Source: a virus
DNA length: 25,477 nucleotides
Virus genome (UHGV): UHGV-2038699
Strand: one strand, 5' to 3'
The position numbers were made by a program, and so were the translations under genes. Positions 1-10,944 of the stretch are shown here, piece after piece (the stretch's first letter is position 1; each line of letters starts with the position of its first letter). The notes under the pieces are model-generated. The model made no database searches. It was not told where the DNA came from and saw only the letters and a program-made list of their open reading frames with translations.

Positions 1-549
1 TCAGCTAGCTGGAAACTTTTTATACAGAGTTGAGAGCCCTACTCCATACGTTTTTGATACGCTTTGTCGTGATTCACCGGTTGCCATCCGCTCCCCCATT
101 TCCCGCCATTGCTCATCCGTGAACTTAGGCCTGCGACCACCAACTCGCCCTTTTGCCCTGGCTACGGCCAGCCCTGCTAAGGTACGTTCGCTATTAAGAT
201 CAGATTCATATTGTGCTGCGGAAAGGATGTTACGAAAGTTATAGCGGCCGCTGGCTGTTTTGAGATCCACGCCATCGGTAATACTGCGGAAGTTGATACC
301 CTTTTCCTGTAACTGCTGGAACATCAACAGCGCATGCAGAACGTTGCGGCCTATCCTGTCCAGCTTCCAGACCACCAGTTCATCCCCCGGCTGCATAATG
401 GCGATCAGCCGTTTTAGAACCGGCCGATTCGATTTCCTCCCGCTGGCATGCTCTTCAAAAATTTTCTCACAACCCGCTGACTTGAGCGCCGTTAGTTGCA
501 ATTCAGTGTCCTGGTGGTTTGTTGATACTCGGGCATAACCGTAAATCAT
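1..549 (-). CDS. pin: Serine-recombinase DNA invertase (Pin/Gin/Hin/Cin family)
   Basis: Translation from the ATG at 549 begins MIYGYARVSTNHQD with the catalytic Ser context (YARVST) of small serine invertases; C-terminal HTH. AGGAG RBS upstream. The ORF track extends to 594 via a GTG, but the ATG at 549 fits the family N-terminus. Confidence 0.85.
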   Translation of the reverse strand: MIYGYARVSTNHQDTELQLTALKSAGCEKIFEEHASGRKSNRPVLKRLIAIMQPGDELVVWKLDRIGRNVLHALLMFQQLQEKGINFRSITDGVDLKTASGRYNFRNILSAAQYESDLNSERTLAGLAVARAKGRVGGRRPKFTDEQWREMGERMATGESRQSVSKTYGVGLSTLYKKFPAS

Positions 550-553
550 GGGA

Positions 554-580
554 TTTCTCCTGTTATGAAAACAGGAGAAA
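554..580. promoter_or_regulatory. Perfect 10-bp palindrome (TTTCTCCTGT / ACAGGAGAAA) overlapping the invertase RBS
   Basis: Arms at 554-563 and 571-580 are exact reverse complements around a 7-nt spacer; the arm on the mRNA contains the AGGAG Shine-Dalgarno. Function (operator or RBS-sequestering hairpin) is inferred. Confidence 0.4.
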
Positions 581-601
581 CGGCGAAGCATCACCAGATT
601 T

Positions 602-1090
602 TTGATGGTTATAAAAAAGGTTGGTTTGGGAGAAACGATAAATAAAGCCTCCGGAGCTATGCAGAAATCGGCTAATGGATCTGATATTTCTGATGTATCA
701 GCCTTCCGAAATGCGCTCCAGTTAGGGACCGCCGCAACACGAGATGTTGGAGCAGATAATGCCTCGAAGTTACTGGATTTAGACAGCTTCAGGTCAATGA
801 TGTCAGGGAATGGCTACATCTACATTCCATGCATTGCGACGACAGGAAACCCGGTGAAACTTATGTTGCAGTGGGGAACGGTGGCAACACAAAAGGGAGC
901 TGATGCTGGATATGCCTTACCATTTGCTTTTCCCTATGCAGGCTTATTTGCGACCGGAAACCGTGGAACATCTGGCTACAATGCCGCGATGAATGTGCGT
1001 ATTGCCAGCAGAACGCATATCAGTATTCAGAACTGGTCGCCATCCGGAGAGGGCACCGAAGATTGTTGTTTTATCGCGCTGGGGTATTAA
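602..1090 (+). CDS. Alternative tail-fibre C-terminal (variable) cassette, promoterless in this orientation
   Basis: The ORF opens on TTG directly at the crossover site and encodes VGLGE... in the same frame as LGLGE in the expressed fibre. No independent RBS or ATG start. Expected to be fused to the constant N-terminal part after inversion. Confidence 0.6.
   Translation: MMVIKKVGLGETINKASGAMQKSANGSDISDVSAFRNALQLGTAATRDVGADNASKLLDLDSFRSMMSGNGYIYIPCIATTGNPVKLMLQWGTVATQKGADAGYALPFAFPYAGLFATGNRGTSGYNAAMNVRIASRTHISIQNWSPSGEGTEDCCFIALGY
609..634. repeat. Invertase crossover site, left (hix/gix-like 26-bp site)
   Basis: TTATAAAAAAGG-TT-GGTTTGGGAGAA. The half-site GGTTTGGGAGAA and the central TT are identical to the reverse complement of the site at 2518-2543; overall resembles hix/gix sites as I recall them. 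Confidence 0.7.
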
Positions 1091-1092
1091 GA

Positions 1093-1509
1093 ATGAATAA
1101 ATTTTATAAAGGCTCTTTCTATCCGAAAGCACTAAAAGAGGTATATATCAGCGCCGGTTCATGGCCTGAAAATGGCGTTGATGTTGATGATGAAACAATG
1201 GCAATTTACACAGGCGTAGCACCAGAAGGTAAAACGCTGGGGGCTGACAAAGATGGTAATCCTGCGTGGATTGATATCCCGCCACTCTCCGCTGAACAAC
1301 AGATTATTCAGGCTGAACAGAAAAGAACGGTATTGCGTTCTATGGCTGATAAGGAAATAGTCTGGAGACAGGATGCTTTTGATGCGGAAATTGCGACGGC
1401 AGAAGAAACCGCCGCGTTGTCTGAATGGAAAAAATACCGGGTCTTGCTGATGCGCGTTGATACATCAAATCCCGTCTGGCCTACGCCTCCGGGGGAGCAG
1501 GCCAATTGA
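1093..1509 (+). CDS. Alternative tail fibre assembly chaperone (Tfa'), silent orientation
   Basis: ATG at 1093 follows the upstream stop (1088-1090) by 2 nt; C-terminus ...NPVWPTPPGEQAN parallels the expressed chaperone end (...INWPAPPEA). Convergent, overlapping 3' ends (1481-1509). Confidence 0.6.
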   Translation: MNKFYKGSFYPKALKEVYISAGSWPENGVDVDDETMAIYTGVAPEGKTLGADKDGNPAWIDIPPLSAEQQIIQAEQKRTVLRSMADKEIVWRQDAFDAEIATAEETAALSEWKKYRVLLMRVDTSNPVWPTPPGEQAN

Positions 1510-2074
1510 TATCCGGCGCGGTGCTGGTATCCGTTGCCGTCACTGCGTCAATGTAATCAAGCACGGCGTTAAGCCGGGTTGTTTCTGCCTGCGTCAGCTT
1601 CCGCCCGGCCTGTAATTTCAGCTGAATCAGGCTGATGGAAGCCATTGCAGCATCAATCAGTGACTGGCGCTGTGCTTCTGCCGCTTCTACTGCGGCACCG
1701 TGTTGTGCCTCAGTATCTGTCACCCATTTCTCACCATCCCATTTATCATATGGCGTTAACGGTGAAAGCGTGACATAACCGTTTTTGATGGCACCGATAT
1801 AATCCACTGTAACAGCAGCACCATTTTCGATTGAGTAAACAGTCTCATTGCGATGGTCTTCTTCATGGCTCCATCCCTTACCTGTAAATACTGCCACTCT
1901 TCCCGGAATGTTTTCGCCAGGGTCAATACCAGTGGAACAGGCGGGCATACTTACGCCAGTATTAATATATTCATCAGACCAGCCCGTATACTCAGATGTT
2001 TCAGCATCATAATAAAAACAACGCATATCGCCCGGCACTGTAGCCAGCCCATTTTCATCAAAAACAGGTTTCAT
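1481..2074 (-). CDS. Tail fibre assembly chaperone (Tfa / Mu U-like)
   Basis: Start ATG overlaps the fibre stop (TAATG); GAGGG RBS; sits directly downstream of the fibre gene; sequence and position typical of tail fibre assembly proteins. Confidence 0.7.
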   Translation of the reverse strand: MKPVFDENGLATVPGDMRCFYYDAETSEYTGWSDEYINTGVSMPACSTGIDPGENIPGRVAVFTGKGWSHEEDHRNETVYSIENGAAVTVDYIGAIKNGYVTLSPLTPYDKWDGEKWVTDTEAQHGAAVEAAEAQRQSLIDAAMASISLIQLKLQAGRKLTQAETTRLNAVLDYIDAVTATDTSTAPDINWPAPPEA

Positions 2075-2868
2075 TATTTAGCCCTCACCAGAAAGTTAAA
2101 TGCAATATTTCGCGGTCTGACAGCAACAAAATTCACACCATCACCCACAGAGTTACTGGTGAAATTAAATCGTGAAAATCCTGGCTGATTTCCGGCGATG
2201 CCATCATGAAAGTTAATTGCGTGTCCCGCACCTCCGCCTATATTCCCGGCAAACTGAGAAAAGTTTGTAGCTTCCTGCCAGCTTAATAATTCGCGACCAC
2301 CATCGGCACCTCGCCCGTCATCCCAGATACGAATGAAATCACCGCGGGCTTCAGGTAATACCAGTGAAGGAAACACTTTCGCCAGCACAGGGTAATCAGA
2401 GGCAGAAAATTTCGCCCCGTTGAACTTCAAAAACACCATACTGGACCAGCTGTCGATTACAGTATTTGGCATTGCAGCGGACGGCCAGAAGAACGGAACG
2501 CCAATAGCTGGAGCACCTTCTCCCAAACCAAGGTTTTCGAGAGCCGTTTTCACCGTGCCATCCGATTTGATATCGCCAAACGGATTCTTGCGGCTCAGGT
2601 ATTCAACAGCAAACCCCGATCCCAGCAATTCAACAAAACCGGGCAGATCACCATTATCAAGCACATCCCGTTGCGTTTTATCACTTACAAACTGGGCCAG
2701 AGCTGCAGCAATAAAGCTGGCCTGTCGAATAACCTTATTGACTTGCGCACTGGATGCTTTCCCTGCTGTAAATCCGGATATAAGCGCAGGCAACGCTTCC
2801 CATTCCTCCTGCGACATAACATTGGCATTCCGATCAGTTGCAAACGCTTTAAAGTCATTTTTCGCCAT
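2074..2868 (-). CDS. Side tail fibre protein: constant N-terminal part (2544-2868) plus variable C-terminal part inside the invertible segment
   Basis: C-terminus (...[13 protein letters not shown]...[18 protein letters not shown]...[12 protein letters not shown]) resembles lambda Stf / Mu S-type fibre C-termini. The crossover site lies in-frame at codons for ENLGLGE. Start at 2868 (TGATG overlap with upstream stop); an alternative ATG at 2886 gives 6 more residues. Confidence 0.7.
2518..2543. repeat. Invertase crossover site, right (inside the tail fibre gene)
   Basis: TTCTCCCAAACC-AA-GGTTTTCGAGAG. The first 14 nt are a perfect inverted match to 621-634; encodes LGLGE in the fibre reading frame. 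Confidence 0.7.
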
Positions 2869-3548
2869 CAGAGTAATACTCCCCATGCCCCTACATCAAA
2901 ACCACTGATGTATTCGTTATCAATATCAAACCCAAAGAATTTAGAACCCTCGGAAGGTGTTTCAACCGAAGGCGTTTCAACATCACCGGCCCATACGCCA
3001 GCTGATTTAACGGTGAGATAGCCCTGTTTGATAGCGGCGATCAGTTCGAGAGACACATCAGAAATATCAGTTTCAGGGAAAACCCAGACCGAAATCGTCA
3101 TGTCCTGGTTGTCGACGATCTGCATCCTCAGGCCTGAGCCTGCGGTAGCAGCGTCAAGGATGGGAGGCAGAGAGTCGTTCCGACCGTCCCAGTTGTTGAT
3201 AGCGATTTTCGCTTTCAGAATGATGCGGTACGTCTCATCGCTTAGAGTCGTATAGCCAGAATCAGGATCATATGGCCCTTGCCAGATGCCCTGGTCATAC
3301 CCAAGCCCGTCAGTGTCCCAGCTGAAATAAACTCCGCTAATTGGCTGGCTGACTATGCGACTGCGTCCGATCCACAGACCGAGGATGTCGAGCTGTACAC
3401 CGACAGCAGTATCGATATCGAAGGCTGTTATAAGCCCTGACATAGTGCTGGACACATCAATCAGCGGGCGGGTGCTCAGATCTATATGGTCAAAAAAGAG
3501 TGGCTTGGTAGCGTGGTAGTTAGTGATCAGTTCGGTGTATTTGCTCAT
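2868..3548 (-). CDS. Baseplate/tail protein (P2 gpI / Mu gp48 / e14 YmfQ-like position)
   Basis: 226 aa; ATGA start/stop overlap with the J-like gene upstream; lies between the baseplate J-like gene and the tail fibre as in Mu/e14-type tails. Family assigned mainly by synteny. Confidence 0.5.
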
Positions 3549-4744
3549 GAGGTCACCGTGATACTGATATTCGCGGTGCTACAGGACGCTGAAGCATCAT
3601 AGGCAATATCAATGTTTGATGCCGATACGCTGCCAGACGACTTACCGATCAGCAGGTCGGTAATATCGTAATAGCGGGCATTCCCGCCGCTCACAACGCC
3701 GAGGTTTGCCGGGGAATAAATACGGCTCAGCAGAACGTCGTCGCCAATTGTTAGGCCATTTATATAATCGGCAACAGCCTGTTTAATCTGCTCGCCGATT
3801 TGAGAGGTATAGCCGGTAAAAACTTTCAGGGTAATGGCTACGAAAATTGGCACATCGGTAGAGCGTGAAAAACTGATGACGTGAGGATTACCGTAAGTAT
3901 CCGGCACCGTGACAGAAGTTGTCCCGTAGGTTGCCGTTCCCTGTCCTTTATTCCCCCTGATGGTCTGGGCTATTTCGGTAACATCCCCACCATCGACGAT
4001 GGCGGAAATTGAGTGCGGCGGTAGCCCGTTGCTGTCTGTTGTTCCTGTGTCGTTCTCATACAACTTGTGACGTGTCACGCCAGCAACGTTAGCTATTGCA
4101 CCGTCGACACCTTCAAACGGTGTGATCGATGGTAGCGCGACGCTTTGCGACTGGCGGATACGTAACTCCGCATCAGTTTCTGCTGGAGTGCCTACAGTAG
4201 CTGCAGCAGGATTGGTTACCGAAACCCAGCCACGAGTCGGTGTGTTAATGGTGGTAATAGTCCCGGCCATCGCAGCAACCGAACCGCTATTCGCACATGT
4301 GGCCGTCACCAGCACAGTACCATCAACGCCGATCGCTACACTTGCGGGAAAATTCCAGATAATGCCGTTTTTATCCCGTGCGGAGCCATTCGTGATAGTC
4401 GTGCCTGCCGTACCGGTTAACAGAAGGTCAGCAGTAGAGTTTGTCGCTACTTTTCGCGTGATCCCGTTAATTTTCACATTGTTGCTAAGCGCTGCGGCCT
4501 GCGCTGTCGTCGGTGAAAAAGAGTTGTAGATCTCGATAGCGGTATTGTTAGCGTCATGCACCGCAAGAGCCACCAGCGCGACCATTTGCCCATCTTTGCT
4601 GTCTGGTTCGAGGTAGGCATCACTACCGTAAATCTGCCTGAAATAGCTGGTCAGTGTATCAAGGATTGTCTGGTAATCAGGCGCACTAATCCCCTGGGCG
4701 GTTACCGTTGCCGATAGCCCCAGCGTGTCGAGGTTCAAAGCCAT
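3545..4744 (-). CDS. Baseplate J-like protein (P2 gpJ / Mu gp47-like)
   Basis: 399 aa, tightly packed between the W-like and I-like genes; size and position match baseplate wedge J proteins. Confidence 0.6.
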   Translation of the reverse strand: MALNLDTLGLSATVTAQGISAPDYQTILDTLTSYFRQIYGSDAYLEPDSKDGQMVALVALAVHDANNTAIEIYNSFSPTTAQAAALSNNVKINGITRKVATNSTADLLLTGTAGTTITNGSARDKNGIIWNFPASVAIGVDGTVLVTATCANSGSVAAMAGTITTINTPTRGWVSVTNPAAATVGTPAETDAELRIRQSQSVALPSITPFEGVDGAIANVAGVTRHKLYENDTGTTDSNGLPPHSISAIVDGGDVTEIAQTIRGNKGQGTATYGTTSVTVPDTYGNPHVISFSRSTDVPIFVAITLKVFTGYTSQIGEQIKQAVADYINGLTIGDDVLLSRIYSPANLGVVSGGNARYYDITDLLIGKSSGSVSASNIDIAYDASASCSTANISITVTS

Positions 4745-5098
4745 TTATGCCTCGCTTGTTACAGTCGTCTGGCCGTAGATTGTGTCAATGGAGGAAGTGA
4801 AGGTGACGCGACGGCTGGTGCCGTCATAATTGGTATCGAAGGAAAGAATCGACAGAACGCCCGGTGTGTCCTGTATGCGTTCACGTATAGCCAGGATGTA
4901 GACGTCAGATCGCTGTTTACCAAGCACCGACTGAACATACGGCGTGCCTTCCGTCAGATCGAGAAACCACTGACCGCGCCACAGCTCGAAGCGGGTTTTT
5001 ACTGCCTGGGCGACACATTCCGGACTGTCGATAAGGAAAGTATCGTCACCCTGCCCGAAAGTGTAATCACCGTCGGTGTCTTCACGTCTGTATCGCAT
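4745..5098 (-). CDS. Baseplate wedge protein (gpW / gp25-like position)
   Basis: 117 aa; immediately upstream of the J-like gene (stop and start adjacent); size and synteny typical of W/gp25-type proteins. Confidence 0.5.
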   Translation of the reverse strand: MRYRREDTDGDYTFGQGDDTFLIDSPECVAQAVKTRFELWRGQWFLDLTEGTPYVQSVLGKQRSDVYILAIRERIQDTPGVLSILSFDTNYDGTSRRVTFTSSIDTIYGQTTVTSEA

Positions 5099-5101
5099 AA
5101 A

Positions 5102-5200
5102 TCACCACCAGCGTATAGCGCTAATAACGCTTGACAGACCGAATAAAAAGAACACGGCCCAGATGAGGAAGAATTTCCAGTTGGGTAGTTTTTCGCCCAT
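5102..5200 (-). CDS. Small hydrophobic protein, 32 aa (MGEKLPNWKFFLIWAVFFLFGLSSVISAIRWW), putative single-pass membrane peptide
   Basis: Not in the ORF track (below its 60-aa limit). ATG at 5200 with GGGAG RBS 9 nt upstream; stop 3 nt before the W start; one predicted TM helix. Confidence 0.4.
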   Translation of the reverse strand: MGEKLPNWKFFLIWAVFFLFGLSSVISAIRWW

Positions 5201-5274
5201 GACTCGCAACTCCCGTATCAGTTTGCTAAAATTAATCACATATTCTCCCTTGCTATCCTCAAGGTGCAGAAAGT

Positions 5275-5312
5275 AAAAAGCCCCGAAGTGTTAGCGCACC
5301 CGGGGCTTTTGT
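5275..5312. terminator. Bidirectional intrinsic-terminator-like hairpin between spike V and the small ORF
   Basis: GCCCCG...CGGGGC stem (5280-5285 / 5301-5306) flanked by an A-run on one side and a T-run on the other. Confidence 0.5.
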
Positions 5313-5326
5313 CTGTTTGGTAGTTT

Positions 5327-6067
5327 TTAATTAGGCGCGGTAGTATTCCCGCTGCCATTCTGCACACCGCCATGGGTATGCTGGATGAGGCTCTTTCCTC
5401 CAGCCTTCACATCGTTAGTCACCGTCACCGGCCCAAGCATCGTCGCAGTACCGCCACTTTCGCCCATTCCCTGAGACAGATTGCCATTAATCGTTACGTT
5501 GCCGTTCAGCGTGATAGTCGGGGATGTGATTGTCGTTCCACCTTCAGCCGTAGCCGTGAGCTGGCCCGGTGTTTGAACGGTGATGTTATGTCCTGCGGCA
5601 ACCTCTACGAACGCCGCACCATCATCGGTTCGCAGCTGCGCGGCGCTGGTACTGATACCGCTGATTTTCTGTGCTTGCGACTGCGGGCCAACGATGGCGA
5701 ACGCATCAGATAAGTCATGCTGTCGCGGATCGACGGTCTCCTGAACGCCGCCGCTCTGCCACCAGAAATCGATGCAACGGTCGGCAAAGATCAGCAGGCA
5801 CTCGTCGCCTTCTTTTACCGGAAAGGTCAGCGTGCAACCGCCGCCGCGCGGGAAGATAACCGGCACATCCACCAGCGGTTTTAATTCGGTGGAGCCATCG
5901 CCAACAATACCGCGAAGCGCTACCTCTACTGTGCAGGTAACAGTGTCAGGATCGAACGACTGAATGATGCCGGGCATCGCTACGCGCATCTGGGTAGACA
6001 CCGAATCGGCAATGGCCTGCGCGGTCTGCTGCTCACCCCCGATCTGTGATTGAGTTGGAATTGGCAT
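5327..6067 (-). CDS. Baseplate spike / assembly protein V (gp5-like OB-fold N-terminus, beta-helical C-terminus)
   Basis: N-terminal region (GIIQSFDPDTVTCTVEVAL...VPVIFPRGGGCTLTFPVKEGDECLLIF) matches the phage baseplate V family; C-terminal repetitive TITSPTITLNGNVTINGN and an HTHGG motif typical of spike tips. Confidence 0.75.
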   Translation of the reverse strand: MPIPTQSQIGGEQQTAQAIADSVSTQMRVAMPGIIQSFDPDTVTCTVEVALRGIVGDGSTELKPLVDVPVIFPRGGGCTLTFPVKEGDECLLIFADRCIDFWWQSGGVQETVDPRQHDLSDAFAIVGPQSQAQKISGISTSAAQLRTDDGAAFVEVAAGHNITVQTPGQLTATAEGGTTITSPTITLNGNVTINGNLSQGMGESGGTATMLGPVTVTNDVKAGGKSLIQHTHGGVQNGSGNTTAPN

Positions 6068-6078
6068 AAAACCCCCAT

Positions 6079-6101
6079 AAAAAAACCAGCCGAAGCTGGT
6101 T
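6079..6101 (-). terminator. Intrinsic terminator-like hairpin (CCAGC-cgaa-GCTGG followed by U7 on the minus-strand transcript) immediately upstream of the V RBS
   Basis: Stem 6086-6090 / 6095-6099, then a run of 7 A on the plus strand (6079-6085), i.e. U7 on the minus transcript; the V RBS (GGGGG) starts 2 nt after the U-tract. Confidence 0.55.
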
Positions 6102-6289
6102 TGGTATCAATTATCTCTTAGTAACTAAGCTACATCAGTGTGAAGTAAGGCTTTTCCGCTGCAATGGCACACATTCACAAGGTGTATTAGGATATGTTTG
6201 CAACAAGTAAGCATTGAAAATCAATTTCAGCCATGAAGCCGCCATAGAGTGGACCTGCACCATCGCATTATTGACTACAGGAGTAACAA

Positions 6290-6580
6290 ATGGGATTTAG
6301 ATTTCGTAAAAGAATCCGGATTGCGCCCGGACTCGCGATCAACATTAGTAAAAGCGGAGTAAGCACTTCAATTGGTGGTAAAGGTTCCACCATTAACATC
6401 GGAAAAAAAGGCGTAAAGATGACAAATGGCCTTCCCGGCACGGGGCTGTCGCATACCACTAACCTTTACTCTCCCGGGAAATCGACAGAAAAAAAACAAC
6501 TTACTCATAAGCAAAAAATAATTAGAAACATCCTGTTCGTAATTATTGTGTTTATTATAATTAAAGCTCAATATTTTTGA
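6290..6580 (+). CDS. DUF4236-like small membrane protein (N-terminal MGFRFRKRIRIAPGLAINISKSGVSTSIGGKG motif, C-terminal TM helix)
   Basis: ATG at 6290 with CAGGAG RBS 6 nt upstream; opposite strand to all structural genes; its own terminator follows; AT-rich relative to flanking genes; C-terminal hydrophobic segment ILFVIIVFIIII. Confidence 0.65.
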   Translation: MGFRFRKRIRIAPGLAINISKSGVSTSIGGKGSTINIGKKGVKMTNGLPGTGLSHTTNLYSPGKSTEKKQLTHKQKIIRNILFVIIVFIIIKAQYF

Positions 6581-6585
6581 CGCAT

Positions 6586-6617
6586 GCCCGCCTATCTGGC
6601 GGGCTATTTTACTTTTC
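6586..6617 (+). terminator. Intrinsic terminator of the DUF4236-like gene
   Basis: GCCCGCC-tatct-GGCGGGC stem-loop followed by TATTTTACTTTTC, 6 nt after the stop codon. Confidence 0.65.
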
Positions 6618-6954
6618 GGCAGTCGTATGTTGCATACTGACGCGGCGAATCCATGCTGGCTTGCAGCCACTGTGCGTTGAGAATGGCTTTGCCGTTGCGC
6701 TTGATGTACTCAAGCCCAACCCAGCGGCCGGGTTGATTAGTTGCAACCGTCCATTCCATCTTGAGATTTTGATAATCTTCCTTGGCTTTCAGAAAGGTCA
6801 TTTTCTGGTTTTCTGGCTTTACACCATTAATATGCATAAAACCATCATTACCTGCGGTGAGGCGATATGGCCCGCATTGGGTATCAGCCATTGCAGTTGA
6901 AGCTCCGACCAACGAAAGAACGGCTCCGCAGATAACATTCCTAATTTTTGTCAT
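6604..6954 (-). CDS. Secreted/periplasmic protein of unknown function, 116 aa, cleavable signal peptide, two Cys
   Basis: Starting at the ATG at 6954: MTKIRNVICGAVLSLVGASTAMA|DTQCGP (n-region K/R, hydrophobic core, AMA cleavage motif). Convergent with the DUF4236-like gene. The ORF track extends it to 7014, but that would overlap the hub gene. Confidence 0.6.
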   Translation of the reverse strand: MTKIRNVICGAVLSLVGASTAMADTQCGPYRLTAGNDGFMHINGVKPENQKMTFLKAKEDYQNLKMEWTVATNQPGRWVGLEYIKRNGKAILNAQWLQASMDSPRQYATYDCRKVK

Positions 6955-6955
6955 A

Positions 6956-8020
6956 TCACACCTGTACTTTTTGGAGCGTCGACTGACTATATAATTCACG
7001 ACTGCCACGCGCAAAGCACATCAAATCCATGTACCACGCCTGACCTCTGGTGTCGCCAGTATAGTCGATAGCTTTGACGATATAAACGCCATCCGTCGCA
7101 ATGCTGGCAGCCTGTGACGTCGTACCGGTCAGCACACGGTTGCCATTCTCTTCAGTTTCGGTGATACGCCCGGGCGACTGTGCGATTTCGCTATTACCGA
7201 GCGACGCGCGGTACACCGAAGCCTGATCGAGCTGGATAAGACCATTAATGCGGATGTTTGGGTTTATCAGGCACCGCACGTTTACGCCGCCGCCCATCGT
7301 CTGTTGCGGCATACCAATCAGGCCAGTATTGGCATTCAACACAATGGCTTCGTGAATATATTTATCCTCCGGCACCATCTGGACCTGACCATCCACCAGC
7401 TGCCATGTCGCTTTGCACTGCGCTGCAATATTATCCATCACGTTACGAGTGGATGAGTAAATCGCGCGGCCACGAGGAAACACGGTATCAGGAAAATCGC
7501 CGGTAATGCCCTGTGTCACGCCGAACACGTTGAAATCCTGCATCGTCGCCCGGTGCAGATCCGCAACGGTATAGCCAGCGGCAAGCGTAGTGATGGTAGT
7601 CGCGTAGAGGAACGCTTCATGATCTCCAATAGCCTGAATCAACACCCAGGAATCGGTAATGTTGTCCTTCCCGGTTACGGTAAAGCGAATATCACCGTCA
7701 AAAATCAGGCCGTAGTTCTGACCGTTCACCTGCCCTATCTGGTCTGGTGAAATCTCTCGGGCGACGCCGACCTGGCTCGCATCAACATCCGGCGCTATAC
7801 CGTCATACCCGGCAATGATGCGAATTTTGGCAAACTCCTGCCCCAGTATCTTGTTCGTGGTATCGGTCGAAAGGTTGTAAATTTTCACGTTCGCCACGCG
7901 CGGCCAGCGTGTGTCTGCCCACTCGATCTGGAACGTGACCTTAAAGTCAGACAGGGAAACGCCCTGCCCGTTCTGGTCCAACAGTTGCAGCTCAAAATGG
8001 CGCATCCAGTTAAGAGACAT
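6956..8020 (-). CDS. Baseplate hub / tail protein (P2 gpD / Mu gp44-like position)
   Basis: 354 aa, located between the tape-measure-proximal genes and spike V; assignment is by size and synteny only. Confidence 0.45.
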   Translation of the reverse strand: MSLNWMRHFELQLLDQNGQGVSLSDFKVTFQIEWADTRWPRVANVKIYNLSTDTTNKILGQEFAKIRIIAGYDGIAPDVDASQVGVAREISPDQIGQVNGQNYGLIFDGDIRFTVTGKDNITDSWVLIQAIGDHEAFLYATTITTLAAGYTVADLHRATMQDFNVFGVTQGITGDFPDTVFPRGRAIYSSTRNVMDNIAAQCKATWQLVDGQVQMVPEDKYIHEAIVLNANTGLIGMPQQTMGGGVNVRCLINPNIRINGLIQLDQASVYRASLGNSEIAQSPGRITETEENGNRVLTGTTSQAASIATDGVYIVKAIDYTGDTRGQAWYMDLMCFARGSRELYSQSTLQKVQV

Positions 8021-8022
8021 TT

Positions 8023-8328
8023 CTACTCCTGCACGAAAATGAGGTGGCTGTATGTGCCGAGGTTGGTTTTGGTGGGCTCGTCCGGTGCGCCTACATCGCA
8101 GCCAACGAGCAGCGCCCCGTTAATACCTAGTTGAGGATATTGCTCAAGAAGATTTACACCGGTTACCAGCGGCACGCCAGAAAGAAGCGCAGCACCGCCG
8201 CTATCCATCACGTCCATGATCCAGCCAGCCGCATCGCGCCAGATGATCCTGAGCGTATAGGTGGTATTGCCCAGCAAAACGCGGAACTGCTGATTGTCAG
8301 GAGAAAGCGGTATTTCGTTAAACTGCAT
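8023..8328 (-). CDS. Tail/baseplate assembly protein, hypothetical
   Basis: ATG at 8328 with GGGGGA RBS, 1 nt after the upstream stop; the track ORF extends to a TTG at 8364. Function unassigned. Confidence 0.4.
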   Translation of the reverse strand: MQFNEIPLSPDNQQFRVLLGNTTYTLRIIWRDAAGWIMDVMDSGGAALLSGVPLVTGVNLLEQYPQLGINGALLVGCDVGAPDEPTKTNLGTYSHLIFVQE

Positions 8329-8329
8329 A

Positions 8330-8932
8330 TCATCCCCCGAATGCTGATGTAACGCTTCCGCCAAGCTGGCTCAGCAAGGATTCGTTTGGCTGTGTAGTGG
8401 ATTTCGTCCCGGAATTTTGCACCGCCGATGTGCTGACGCCATCCTGCATATCTGATTTATCAGCAACACTAACGCTCTGCGTTTGCGACATGATCACTTC
8501 ACGCAGGGTAAGCGTGCAGTTCAGCACGTTTTCGCTGGTTTTGTCCGTTGTCACCTCGATGGCTCGCACCAGCATATTGCTGTACACCCGCTTTCCGGTC
8601 ACCACATCGAACGGCACCCGAGAGGACTGGAGATCCAGCAGTTGCTGATAGGTCTCTTTCGGGCTTAGTCCGGCGCTGAGGCCGATTGAAGATGTATCAA
8701 TGAAGTCCAGCAACGAACCGCCACCAGCGAAGCCGCATTCCATTGTGACTTCGCTGGGGCGCTTATACGCATGATCGGCGATGAAGCCCGAAGCGCTATT
8801 CGTTGTTGGCTTCTCCACCGGGTGCTCAGTAATTTCGAGCGCATCAGAATGCTTTTCGGAGACGACCACGCTGGGGATCAGCAGGCCAATTCGCCGGGAT
8901 TGCTGGCGAAAAATCGCTGATAAAATATCCAT
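8330..8932 (-). CDS. Tail protein, hypothetical (between tape measure and hub)
   Basis: 200 aa; ATG overlaps the tape-measure stop codon (translationally coupled). Confidence 0.4.
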   Translation of the reverse strand: MDILSAIFRQQSRRIGLLIPSVVVSEKHSDALEITEHPVEKPTTNSASGFIADHAYKRPSEVTMECGFAGGGSLLDFIDTSSIGLSAGLSPKETYQQLLDLQSSRVPFDVVTGKRVYSNMLVRAIEVTTDKTSENVLNCTLTLREVIMSQTQSVSVADKSDMQDGVSTSAVQNSGTKSTTQPNESLLSQLGGSVTSAFGG

Positions 8933-10944
8933 TATCTCGGTCCTGCGGGGAGTTGCTGGGTTAACTGTGAATTCACGCCCTTTTGACGGTCAACAGTCAA
9001 ACGGGCAGCTTCGCGAGGATCGGAAACGCCGTGGATGTTAATGTTCGTTTCCTGCTGAATCACCGGGGCGCTGGTGGGCATATTGCTCATTACTTTCGGA
9101 ATGTAATTGCGCGTTTCCTGCGGCATTAGCCCCATTCCATAACGCTTAACATTCCCGATCCCCCAGTTATATGATGCCAGTGCTTTGCTAAGGTCTCCGC
9201 CGTTCTGCCGCAACAGCTGGCTGAGGTACTTAGCGGCTGCCTGAGCTGACTTTTCCGGGTCGAATACATCATTCCCACGCAGGCCCATGTCGCGCGCCGT
9301 GCCATCCATAAACTGAAACAGTCCTTTCGCGCCTGCGCCGGATATGGCGAACTGGTTACCACCCGACTCGGTGATCGCCACGCTTTTCAACAGGCCAGCT
9401 GGCAGCTGATAAAGCGACTCCAGTTTATTGAACATTGGCCCCATCCAGTCGAGCAATACCTTACCCTGGGCTGTGGCTTGTGGGCGCTTCACTGACTGGG
9501 CGTATTGCTCCGGTTCAGCGCCTGGAATATCTGACTGAATATTCGCGCCATACACGGTATTGGGATTGCGGCCAAAATCGGTATTAAACCCCATCCAGCG
9601 GAGCGCATCTCCGATGTTTCCTTTGGTGTAGTCCCATGATGATTTAGCGCTTTCTTTAATATTATGCCTGTCGTCCACCAGATACCCGGCATAAATAGCC
9701 CACAGCTTCAGCCATGGCGGCATAGGTATTCCGGCTAACTTAGCAAATGCAGAGGTTATTTTGCTTAACCATACCCCTGCAATGAAGGTAGCCAAAATTT
9801 CCAGTGAGTTCTGCCACCCACCGACAGAATCTTTTAGCTCCAACAGCTTATCTCGCAGCCAGATAATTGCCTTTTTCGCCTTTTCTATTGCTGGTTCCCA
9901 CTTGCTCCAGTCAATCAGGCTTTTTCCGCCCTCTTTCCACGTCTGGTAATCGTCATAGAGTAATCCGATCGCCAGAATCAGCGTGGTGATAATTCCAATC
10001 GGGGATTTCAGGAACGCAGAATTAAGCAGACGCCATGCGACAAGTAGAGCACCGAATATTTTCAGCAGATTTTTACTGCCATCGTCAAGACGCTTCCACC
10101 AGTCGATGACAGAGCCAGCGCCCTGTATCAGCCGCCACGCCATTCTCGTGAATGCGTTCGCAAGCCAGATCACGCCGTTAATAACTCTGGTAAGCGTCTC
10201 TTCAATCTTCGGGAAATTGTCGAGGATGCGCCGCCGCAGGCTGTCCAGCGAACCAGCCAGGCCACCAGCGAGGTTTGAGCCGATCTTGTCCCGCATGATG
10301 CCGAACAGCGACGTAAGCCCGCGCATGGACGTCATGAATTTGTTGGACTGAACAGCCGCTTTATCAGCGTTGAACCCTGTCTTTTGCAGCATCGACTGGT
10401 AATCGGCGGTAAAGCCATTCATGCCGCGCCGCATCGCCATCAGCGTGTTTTCATCGATGCCAAGCATCTGCGCGTATTGCTTCGCGCGGTAATACGGCAT
10501 GTTGTTGAGCTTTTGCCCAACGCCAGTAAAGATGGCCGCAGTATCACGCATCTTTCCGCTGGCATCACGGGTCTGGACACCCAGGCGGTTCAGGAAGCCT
10601 TCCGCCCCCGGATTGCTACGCATGAACCCCGCCAGCCCTTCGAGGGAGGACATAGCCGACTCGGCGCTGGCACCGGTTTGCGATGCGGCATAGCCCAGCG
10701 CTTTGATGCCCTGGACGCTGGCCCCCGTCCGCTGGGATGCCCAGTAAATTTTATCCAGACCATTCGCGATCTGGGTGGTAAATCCGACAATGCTCAGCGC
10801 TGCGCCTTCCACCACCGCGCCGACCTTCAGAACGTTCGCGGTAACACCTTTCAGCACGGCTTCAAACTTATTAGCGCCAGCCTGATCGATATCGAATCCC
10901 AGCGAAACAAGGAAATCTTTAATCGTATCTGCGTTACCGCTCAT
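8932..10944 (-). CDS. Tail tape measure protein with C-terminal lytic transglycosylase (SLT) domain
   Basis: 670 aa, largest tail gene, downstream of chaperone/tube/sheath; internal hydrophobic segments; C-terminal motif SVAITESGGNQFAISGAGAKGLFQFM characteristic of SLT catalytic Glu-Ser region. Confidence 0.75.
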   Translation of the reverse strand: MSGNADTIKDFLVSLGFDIDQAGANKFEAVLKGVTANVLKVGAVVEGAALSIVGFTTQIANGLDKIYWASQRTGASVQGIKALGYAASQTGASAESAMSSLEGLAGFMRSNPGAEGFLNRLGVQTRDASGKMRDTAAIFTGVGQKLNNMPYYRAKQYAQMLGIDENTLMAMRRGMNGFTADYQSMLQKTGFNADKAAVQSNKFMTSMRGLTSLFGIMRDKIGSNLAGGLAGSLDSLRRRILDNFPKIEETLTRVINGVIWLANAFTRMAWRLIQGAGSVIDWWKRLDDGSKNLLKIFGALLVAWRLLNSAFLKSPIGIITTLILAIGLLYDDYQTWKEGGKSLIDWSKWEPAIEKAKKAIIWLRDKLLELKDSVGGWQNSLEILATFIAGVWLSKITSAFAKLAGIPMPPWLKLWAIYAGYLVDDRHNIKESAKSSWDYTKGNIGDALRWMGFNTDFGRNPNTVYGANIQSDIPGAEPEQYAQSVKRPQATAQGKVLLDWMGPMFNKLESLYQLPAGLLKSVAITESGGNQFAISGAGAKGLFQFMDGTARDMGLRGNDVFDPEKSAQAAAKYLSQLLRQNGGDLSKALASYNWGIGNVKRYGMGLMPQETRNYIPKVMSNMPTSAPVIQQETNINIHGVSDPREAARLTVDRQKGVNSQLTQQLPAGPR

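Follow-up and report, generated by a model that had tools for sequence, protein, structure and literature searches.

A probable tail fiber inversion switch of the Pin/Gin type at the 3' end of a myovirus late operon

Does the tail fiber gene at one end of the viral genome UHGV-2038699 encode a single fixed tip, or can the tip be exchanged by site-specific inversion of the DNA? We studied a 25,477-nucleotide (nt) stretch of this genome, which we call the window, where an invertase gene lies beside two short sites, L and R, that enclose the tip of the fiber gene and an alternative to it (Table 1). We put the probability at roughly 80% that a myovirus late operon here ends, on its 3' side, in a site-specific inversion switch of the Pin/Gin type, one that is functional or was so very recently. 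Its parts, their integrity, the conservation of the reading frame and the identity of one site with a site of the cryptic prophage e14 of Escherichia coli K-12 can be read directly from the DNA.

Sites, cassettes and invertase

Site L, placed 72 bases upstream of the invertase ATG, reads TTATAAAAAAGG TT GGTTTGGGAGAA, and the reverse complement of site R reads CTCTCGAAAACC TT GGTTTGGGAGAA. Exact comparison showed that the two agree at 20 of 26 positions, with the core TT and the inner half-site of 12 base pairs (bp) identical, and that together they yield an exact inverted repeat of 14 nt (TTGGTTTGGGAGAA). This is the arrangement of invertase sites: two inverted 26-bp copies, each made of 12-bp halves around the same 2-bp core. 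A preliminary description of this DNA had proposed the pair and had named a failure to align as inverted repeats as one result that would overturn its proposal; the computation upheld the pair. The 14-mer had no further copy in the window, and a search of the same DNA for a third or cryptic site, as in a Min-like shufflon, found none.

Alignment against known sites, which the preliminary description had called for, identified the type more closely. Site R is identical at 26/26 positions to the e14 site inside stfP/ycfK of E. coli K-12, whereas the gix site of phage Mu, TTATCCAAAACC TC GGTTTACAGGAA, differs in its core and in its sequence. The pinE-proximal site of e14 is TTTTCATAAACG TT GGTTTGGGAGAA, and the e14 crossover repeat, which is the 14-mer given above, is present exactly in both window sites. 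In experiments, PinE and PinQ each inverted the 1797-bp P segment of e14 at this mapped repeat, and PinQ, only 38% identical to PinE, thus acts on pix-type sites (PMC12529663). Similarity to other phages begins or ends at the two sites or a few bases from them: at 621–1762 in vB_EcoM-640R3, 1477–2542 in phage 500465-2, 1942–2545 in mEp043 and mEp213, and 1–632 in HK225.

The spacing from L to R is 1883 bp, and this segment holds two convergent cassettes, each consisting of a fiber tip and an assembly chaperone gene. All four genes are full length and have full-length homologues. The silent Sv' arm is in frame with the codons GGT TTG GGA GAA of site L. On the other side, the constant part Sc, which lies outside the segment, spans about 112 amino acids (aa), the core dinucleotide falls in codon 113, and the codons for G-L-G-E lie in the inner half-site. 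The actual start codon of the fiber gene, at 2868, forms an ATGA overlap with the stop codon of the upstream DUF2612 gene. In silico reversal of positions 621–2531 stayed in frame and converted the 264-aa Sc-Sv fiber into a 268-aa Sc-Sv' fiber. That is, the window has the makeup of a Mu G-type cassette, with a constant N-terminus outside the segment, two sets of C-terminus and chaperone, and in-frame fusions in both orientations. The earlier claims of about 1.9 kb with two convergent sets, and of two intact arms, are therefore borne out. Intact arms are not a distinctive feature, in that the Mu G segment also has both arm and chaperone sets, as does the P1 segment.

Homologues of the cassettes were found in other prophages and phages. 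The window fiber is 98.1% identical to ECs_0280 of E. coli O157:H7 Sakai, and exact copies of the 264-aa protein are on record from at least 23 E. coli contigs. The expressed chaperone, tfa, is 95.9% identical to TfaE of O157 Sakai and 62% to TfaE of e14, and the exact protein is on record; the exact tfa' protein was found on 312 contigs. A 268-aa E. coli protein (P0063, in a cluster of 42), from a more distant prophage, is 97% identical over its full length to the flipped fusion. In strain KSC64, a related prophage without an invertase has Sv' and tfa' in the expressed position as a fixed tip, and in the lambdoid phages mEp043 and mEp213 Sv and tfa form a fixed side-fiber tip. Because each cassette is a fixed, expressed tip in other phages, we consider both to be working modules. 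It is solely the lack of sequence relationship between the tips that suggests two receptor specificities. A sequence search of the PDB with the fiber gave marginal matches to T4 gp37 and to a short tail fiber (E = 0.01–0.07), which we did not use.

The convergent 3' ends of tfa and tfa' overlap by 29 nt (1481–1509), as do those of tfaP and tfaE in e14 and those of the Sakai prophage Sp1. This overlap and the start of tfa are the sole DNA in the interior of the segment that is conserved with e14.

The invertase had been described as a serine invertase adjoining the sites, and it proved complete and Gin-like from end to end: the Mu Gin structures 3uj3 and 4m6f aligned with it from residue 1 to residue 181 (E = 2.5e-56). 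A domain search returned Resolvase and HTH_7, and PHROG 125 ('DNA invertase') matched at 2.3e-74. The catalytic Ser9 is in place in YARVSTNHQ (the RVST motif), and the protein has the size (about 180–195 aa), the catalytic serine and the C-terminal helix-turn-helix of the Hin/Gin/Cin/Pin group. Its identity is 53.8% to PinE and 48% to Gin. Since O157 PinE and e14 PinE differ at few positions in alignment, we do not count a protein this far from PinE among the PinE orthologues. By sequence it is a divergent branch that groups with PinL of phi80 and the HK225 invertase, with nucleotide identities of 99.7% to the HK225 gene, 93% to phi80 pinL and 96% to the mEp237 gene. The exact protein was found on 41 contigs. 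We concluded from these comparisons that the sites are, as far as sequence can tell, e14-type pix sites served by a phi80 PinL-like invertase, which narrows the earlier assignment to the class of Mu G, P1 C and e14 P.

The leader of the invertase gene contains a perfect hairpin (Table 1). An RNA fold of 530–625 on the minus strand gave −28 kcal/mol (z = −4.9). The phi80 branch keeps the hairpin, with a compensatory change in its end pair, and the phi80 record annotates it as IR3; PinE-type leaders have a weaker analogue. The hairpin probably throttles translation of the invertase and so keeps its level low. A sigma-70 scan found no promoter for the invertase, and a scan for sigma-70-like promoters in front of the Sv and Sv' arms likewise found none.

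Invertases of this family work with a recombinational enhancer bound by Fis, and the Fis sites of Hin lie within coding sequence. The candidate proximal Fis site inside the window invertase gene is identical at 13 of 15 positions to the homologous stretch of gin and pinE, with the G...C conserved. Its center lies 99.5 bp from the core of L, and the Hin enhancer lies about 100 bp from its near site (PMC3798978). By analogy with the family, the window switch would use Fis and an enhancer in the 5' part of the invertase gene. Conservation at third codon positions was not clearly raised in the enhancer region. Scoring with a home-made Fis consensus was not trusted alone because several pairs of sites scored equally well.

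Table 1. Features of the inversion unit and the adjoining baseplate gene, with positions in the window
Feature	Position	Strand	Remarks
DNA invertase gene, 182 aa	1–549	minus	Stop codon at 1–3; Hin/Gin/Cin/Pin serine invertase, PinL-like branch
Possible recombinational enhancer element: candidate proximal Fis site within the invertase coding sequence	515–529	minus	GTATCAACAAACCAC; proposed from conservation
Hairpin in the invertase leader, 12 bp	553–581	minus	3' arm holds the Shine-Dalgarno sequence AGGAG, 4 nt before the ATG
Site L, invertase-proximal	609–634	plus	Outer half 609–620, core TT 621–622, inner half 623–634
Sv' arm, silent alternative fiber C-terminus	635–1090	plus	gp53-like C-terminal domain (PF21882, 1.4e-8)
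tfa', assembly chaperone for Sv', 138 aa	1093–1509	plus	Caudo_TAP 2.8e-31; PHROG 188
tfa, assembly chaperone for Sv, 197 aa	1481–2074	minus	Caudo_TAP 2.1e-27; PHROG 105 2.3e-83
Sv arm, expressed fiber C-terminus, tail-collar type	2074–2517	minus	Fiber aa 118–264; PHROG 3100, PHROG 523 'tail collar fiber protein'
Site R, fiber-side	2518–2543	minus	Core 2530–2531; minus strand encodes ...E-N-L-G-L-G-E
Sc, constant fiber N-terminus, outside the invertible segment	2544–2868	minus	PHROG 11303, PHROG 1396 (tail fiber N-terminal parts)
DUF2612 baseplate wedge gene, last constant gene of the late operon	2868–3548	minus	PF11041, 2.9e-46

Orientation in copies and relatives

Among relatives, a flip was found in the prophage remnant Sp1 of E. 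coli O157:H7. Comparison of Sakai with a derivative of strain 86-24 showed a clean inversion: the 1.9-kb segment is reversed, the breakpoints lie inside the 26-bp sites, and the flanks are 100% and 99.98% identical. Among complete genomes, a query for the Sc-Sv junction was covered to at least 80% in 156, only part of which are O157:H7, and the alternative Sc-yfdL-type junction was covered in 88. The twelve of these 88 that were listed are all at an Sp1-type locus beside a phage replication-gene fragment, and most are named O157:H7. The 86-24 derivative has its alternative fusion annotated with a frameshift.

Within the PinL branch, the identical L site and invertase occur together on 25 IMG/VR contigs (23 of them with 99–100% nucleotide identity in the invertase), and in 85 complete E. 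coli genomes 80% or more of a query made of invertase and site was matched, with the match running through 632–634 in most of the listed ones. The invertase of this branch is joined to many different arm pairs, each beginning directly after GGTTTGGGAGAA, and the same arm types adjoin L in one prophage and R in another. One whole cassette pair of 1843 bp was found in both orientations (L039 versus L033 and L073, the copy in G3/10) at 94.5% identity. A near-clonal pair of opposite orientation was not found in the branch by searches of yciI-side prophages and with native and flipped G3/10 constructs; in the yciI prophages the construct searches returned diverged pairs of opposite orientation (93–95% identity, partial coverage). 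We concluded that inversion at these sites has occurred in the history of the PinL branch, which falls short of a flip within one clone. Switching of the exact window element is inferred from these relatives.

Several results weigh against that extension. The exact cassette pair is known from three contigs, possibly of one strain: the window, an ENA metagenome contig that is 100% identical to it over 1273–8868 (L015), and one from IMG/VR (L064). All three share one orientation. An exact look-up of the flipped fusions, of 268 aa and 274 aa, among about 15 billion proteins found neither. When JGI metagenome contigs were scanned with a degenerate exact pattern for the two L junctions, 0 matches were returned; the current junction was missing as well, so that the source is absent from that collection. 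In a megablast with the flipped Sc-Sv' junction, none of the complete E. coli genomes reached 80% coverage; the best matches were 299-aa fibers that carry an insertion of 31 aa and belong to a prophage lacking an invertase. These searches for a flipped copy have little power because only three contigs carry the cassette pair. The clean flip within one lineage belongs to a PinE-type element and not to the PinL branch, and an invertase only 54% identical to PinE is here presumed to use pix-type sites. In L, the outer half-site and its dyad partner agree at just 6 of 12 positions; hixR is similarly asymmetric. Lastly, a distal Fis site was not recognizable in the window invertase gene, either by scoring or by comparison with gin and pinE.

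Other observations concern orientation and decay in the wider family. E. coli EC12 (NZ_CP060933.1, ~1.471 Mb) has a G3/10-like segment on the strand opposite to that in EC15 and EC18 (NZ_CP060919.1 and NZ_CP060914.1, ~1.474 Mb). The three are human isolates of similar size, and the segment is 97% identical to that of G3/10 and nearly equal in chromosomal position; the difference may be a flip within one lineage. Strain G3/10 (NZ_CP060075.1) itself has two nearly identical segments (99.8%) in two prophages, at 2075872–2077752 and 2830425–2833119, and in the copy beside yciI the annotation marks both tfa genes with frameshifts. Short-read contigs with the window fiber often end at or near the sites: L011 (at 8153, 6 nt into the L site), L012 (at 8140), L015 (at window position 1273), L051, L052 (41 nt past an Sc-Sv' junction) and L072. 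Assemblies GCA_019231645.1 and ERZ27296280 contain examples of contigs that break off at the sites. Such ends could reflect mixed orientations in a sample, or repeats common to prophages. In E. coli AR_0118 (L001), the closest relative among complete genomes, the fiber-side site (5143–5168) reads CTCTCGAAAACC TT CAATTGGGAGAA, with three changes beside the core, and the expressed-arm tfa (4484–4717) is shortened to 77 aa. To judge from these changes, the AR_0118 element is probably locked.

Proposed mechanism and alternatives

On the reading that we prefer, an inversion switch, the late operon would transcribe Sc together with the baseplate genes from a promoter outside the segment. The cassette facing Sc would supply the fiber C-terminus and the matching chaperone, which are Sv and tfa in the sequenced orientation. 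Dimers of the invertase, whose activity on L and R we infer by analogy, would bind the two sites and make double-strand cuts at the central TT with 2-nt overhangs; one pair of subunits would then rotate by 180 degrees and the ends would be religated with the 1883-bp segment turned over, as is established for the Hin/Gin family (PMC3798978). After the flip, the shared codons for N-L-G-L-G-E would link Sc in frame with Sv' (268 aa in all), and tfa' would come next. Because transcription would come from outside the segment, the flip would alter only the C-terminus and the chaperone that follow Sc. A population of lysogens could in this way release two virion types with different receptor-binding tips.

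The alternative that survives best is a switch that is structurally intact and nevertheless locked, that is, one with no useful rate of recombination, in which Sv is the only tip and Sv' and tfa' are carried as silent cargo. The single orientation of the three exact copies, the missing flipped fusion, the weak outer half-site of L and the lack of a recognizable distal Fis site would all fit it, and AR_0118, with its mutated R inner half-site and truncated tfa, suggests that locking happens in this family. We nevertheless consider it unlikely for the window. The window sites retain the canonical core and inner half-site, and every open reading frame is intact, whereas one would expect silent cargo to decay. 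Dozens of prophages conserve the identical L site beside this invertase, with arm pairs in both arrangements among them, and three contigs that may be one strain carry no statistical power.

A lysogen-defense switch, in which the segment would mainly benefit the lysogen and not the virion, is less probable still. Here, one orientation would give a fiber-derived protein that blocks the adsorption of other phages, and the crossover repeat is indeed shared with e14, in which inversion yields StfE2, a protein that blocks T2 adsorption (PMC12529663); the Sv arm is also 41% identical to the StfE arm of e14. The window fiber gene, however, closes a complete late operon, its start codon overlapping the stop codon before it, and for that reason should be silent in a lysogen. 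Neither arm is preceded by a sigma-70-like promoter of its own, and a role in the virion accounts for every part, both chaperones included.

The weakest alternative, a chance repeat in a static mosaic built by horizontal exchange without site-specific recombination, could appeal to our own rough estimate of one such 14-nt inverted pair per 25 kb, but it is already refuted, because R is identical throughout to a site of proven recombination, the 14-mer is the crossover repeat published for e14, a dedicated invertase adjoins, both copies lie in frame in fiber open reading frames at the arm boundaries, phage similarity starts or stops at the sites or a few bases from them, and the inversion breakpoints of relatives fall exactly within them.

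Comparison with known systems and significance

The window unit is a new example of the class that includes Mu G, P1 C and e14 P. P1 C/Cin and p15B Min are serine-invertase fiber switches of the same family; Min has six crossover sites and many isoforms, whereas the window has only two sites. With Mu, the window shares the logic of Sc joined to Sv or Sv' and of U and U', the 26-bp sites with a 2-bp core, and an invertase that aligns over its full length with Gin. The Mu segment differs in its gix sequence and in being longer (about 3 kb) with much longer fibers.

The closest layout is that of e14, with Sc outside the segment, two convergent arm and Tfa cassettes, and the invertase beside the silent arm, in addition to the shared fiber-side site and the crossover repeat at both ends. 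Both orientations of e14 coexist in K-12 cultures (PMC4272514). The e14 P segment measures 1797–1801 bp against 1883 bp in the window, the invertases and the outer half-sites (TTTTCATAAACG in e14, TTATAAAAAAGG in the window) differ, and the arms are only locally similar, at 41–47% identity. The baseplate neighbor is YmfQ/DUF2313 in e14 and DUF2612 in the window, and e14 is a defective remnant whereas the window has a whole late operon. Sp1 of O157:H7 (Sakai ECs_0280–0284 and pinE) shares the fiber, tfa, the inner half-site and the core with the window, and it is found in both orientations among complete genomes. It differs in its PinE-type invertase and L site and in its other cassette (yfdL/yfdK), and it is without virion genes, its Sc abutting the replication-gene fragment.

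The remaining relatives, phi80, the lambdoid phage HK225 and mEp237, share the invertase branch. When the end regions of phi80 (L077, 2361–3137) and HK225 (L078, 2364–3132) were compared with window positions 1–634, both had the same leader hairpin, and in both phages the invertase adjoins an attP that targets yciI. Relatives of the window prophage likewise lie beside yciI in E. coli, with the invertase at the prophage end. In contrast to the window, phi80 and HK225 keep one site only, together with a fiber fragment in phi80, and so have a relic where the window has a switch. The end-module seems to be common to a myovirus and to siphoviruses, with phi80 retaining only a relic of the switch.

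A more speculative proposal, which we hold to be doubtful, is that the invertase, the L site and attP(yciI) form a portable end-module of unrelated temperate phages, phi80/HK225-type siphoviruses and this myovirus, and that pix sites, besides serving inversion, are joints at which co-resident prophages exchange fiber-tip cassettes, with invertases possibly acting in trans as PinQ does on e14. If true, the unit would serve population-level swapping of cassettes and not a two-state toggle, and it might affect the sensitivity of lysogens to phages, as StfE2 does.

By sequence, the switch closes an apparently complete myovirus late operon. Upstream on the same strand are genes for baseplate J, hub, tape measure, tube, sheath, major capsid, portal and terminase, and lysis genes. 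The nearest phage records are Citrobacter phage Omnitron, the E. coli vB_EcoM-6xxR phages and Salmonella phage SEN34. The tape measure protein (670 aa; 8932–10944, minus strand) matches transglycosylase, endolysin and lytic tail protein families in its C-terminal residues ~470–665.

The gain in mechanism is small, because invertible fiber switches are long familiar from Mu G, P1 C and e14 P, and the mechanism is a textbook one that is found in thousands of E. coli genomes. The value of the finding lies mainly in annotation and practical work. The window represents the intact form of a PinL-type unit of which the laboratory contaminant phage phi80 keeps only a relic, it ties the PinL branch of invertases to e14-type pix sites, and its relatives among E. 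coli prophages document a wide exchange of fiber tips at the crossover site. For the prediction or engineering of host range, the fiber genes of such prophages need to be read in both orientations.

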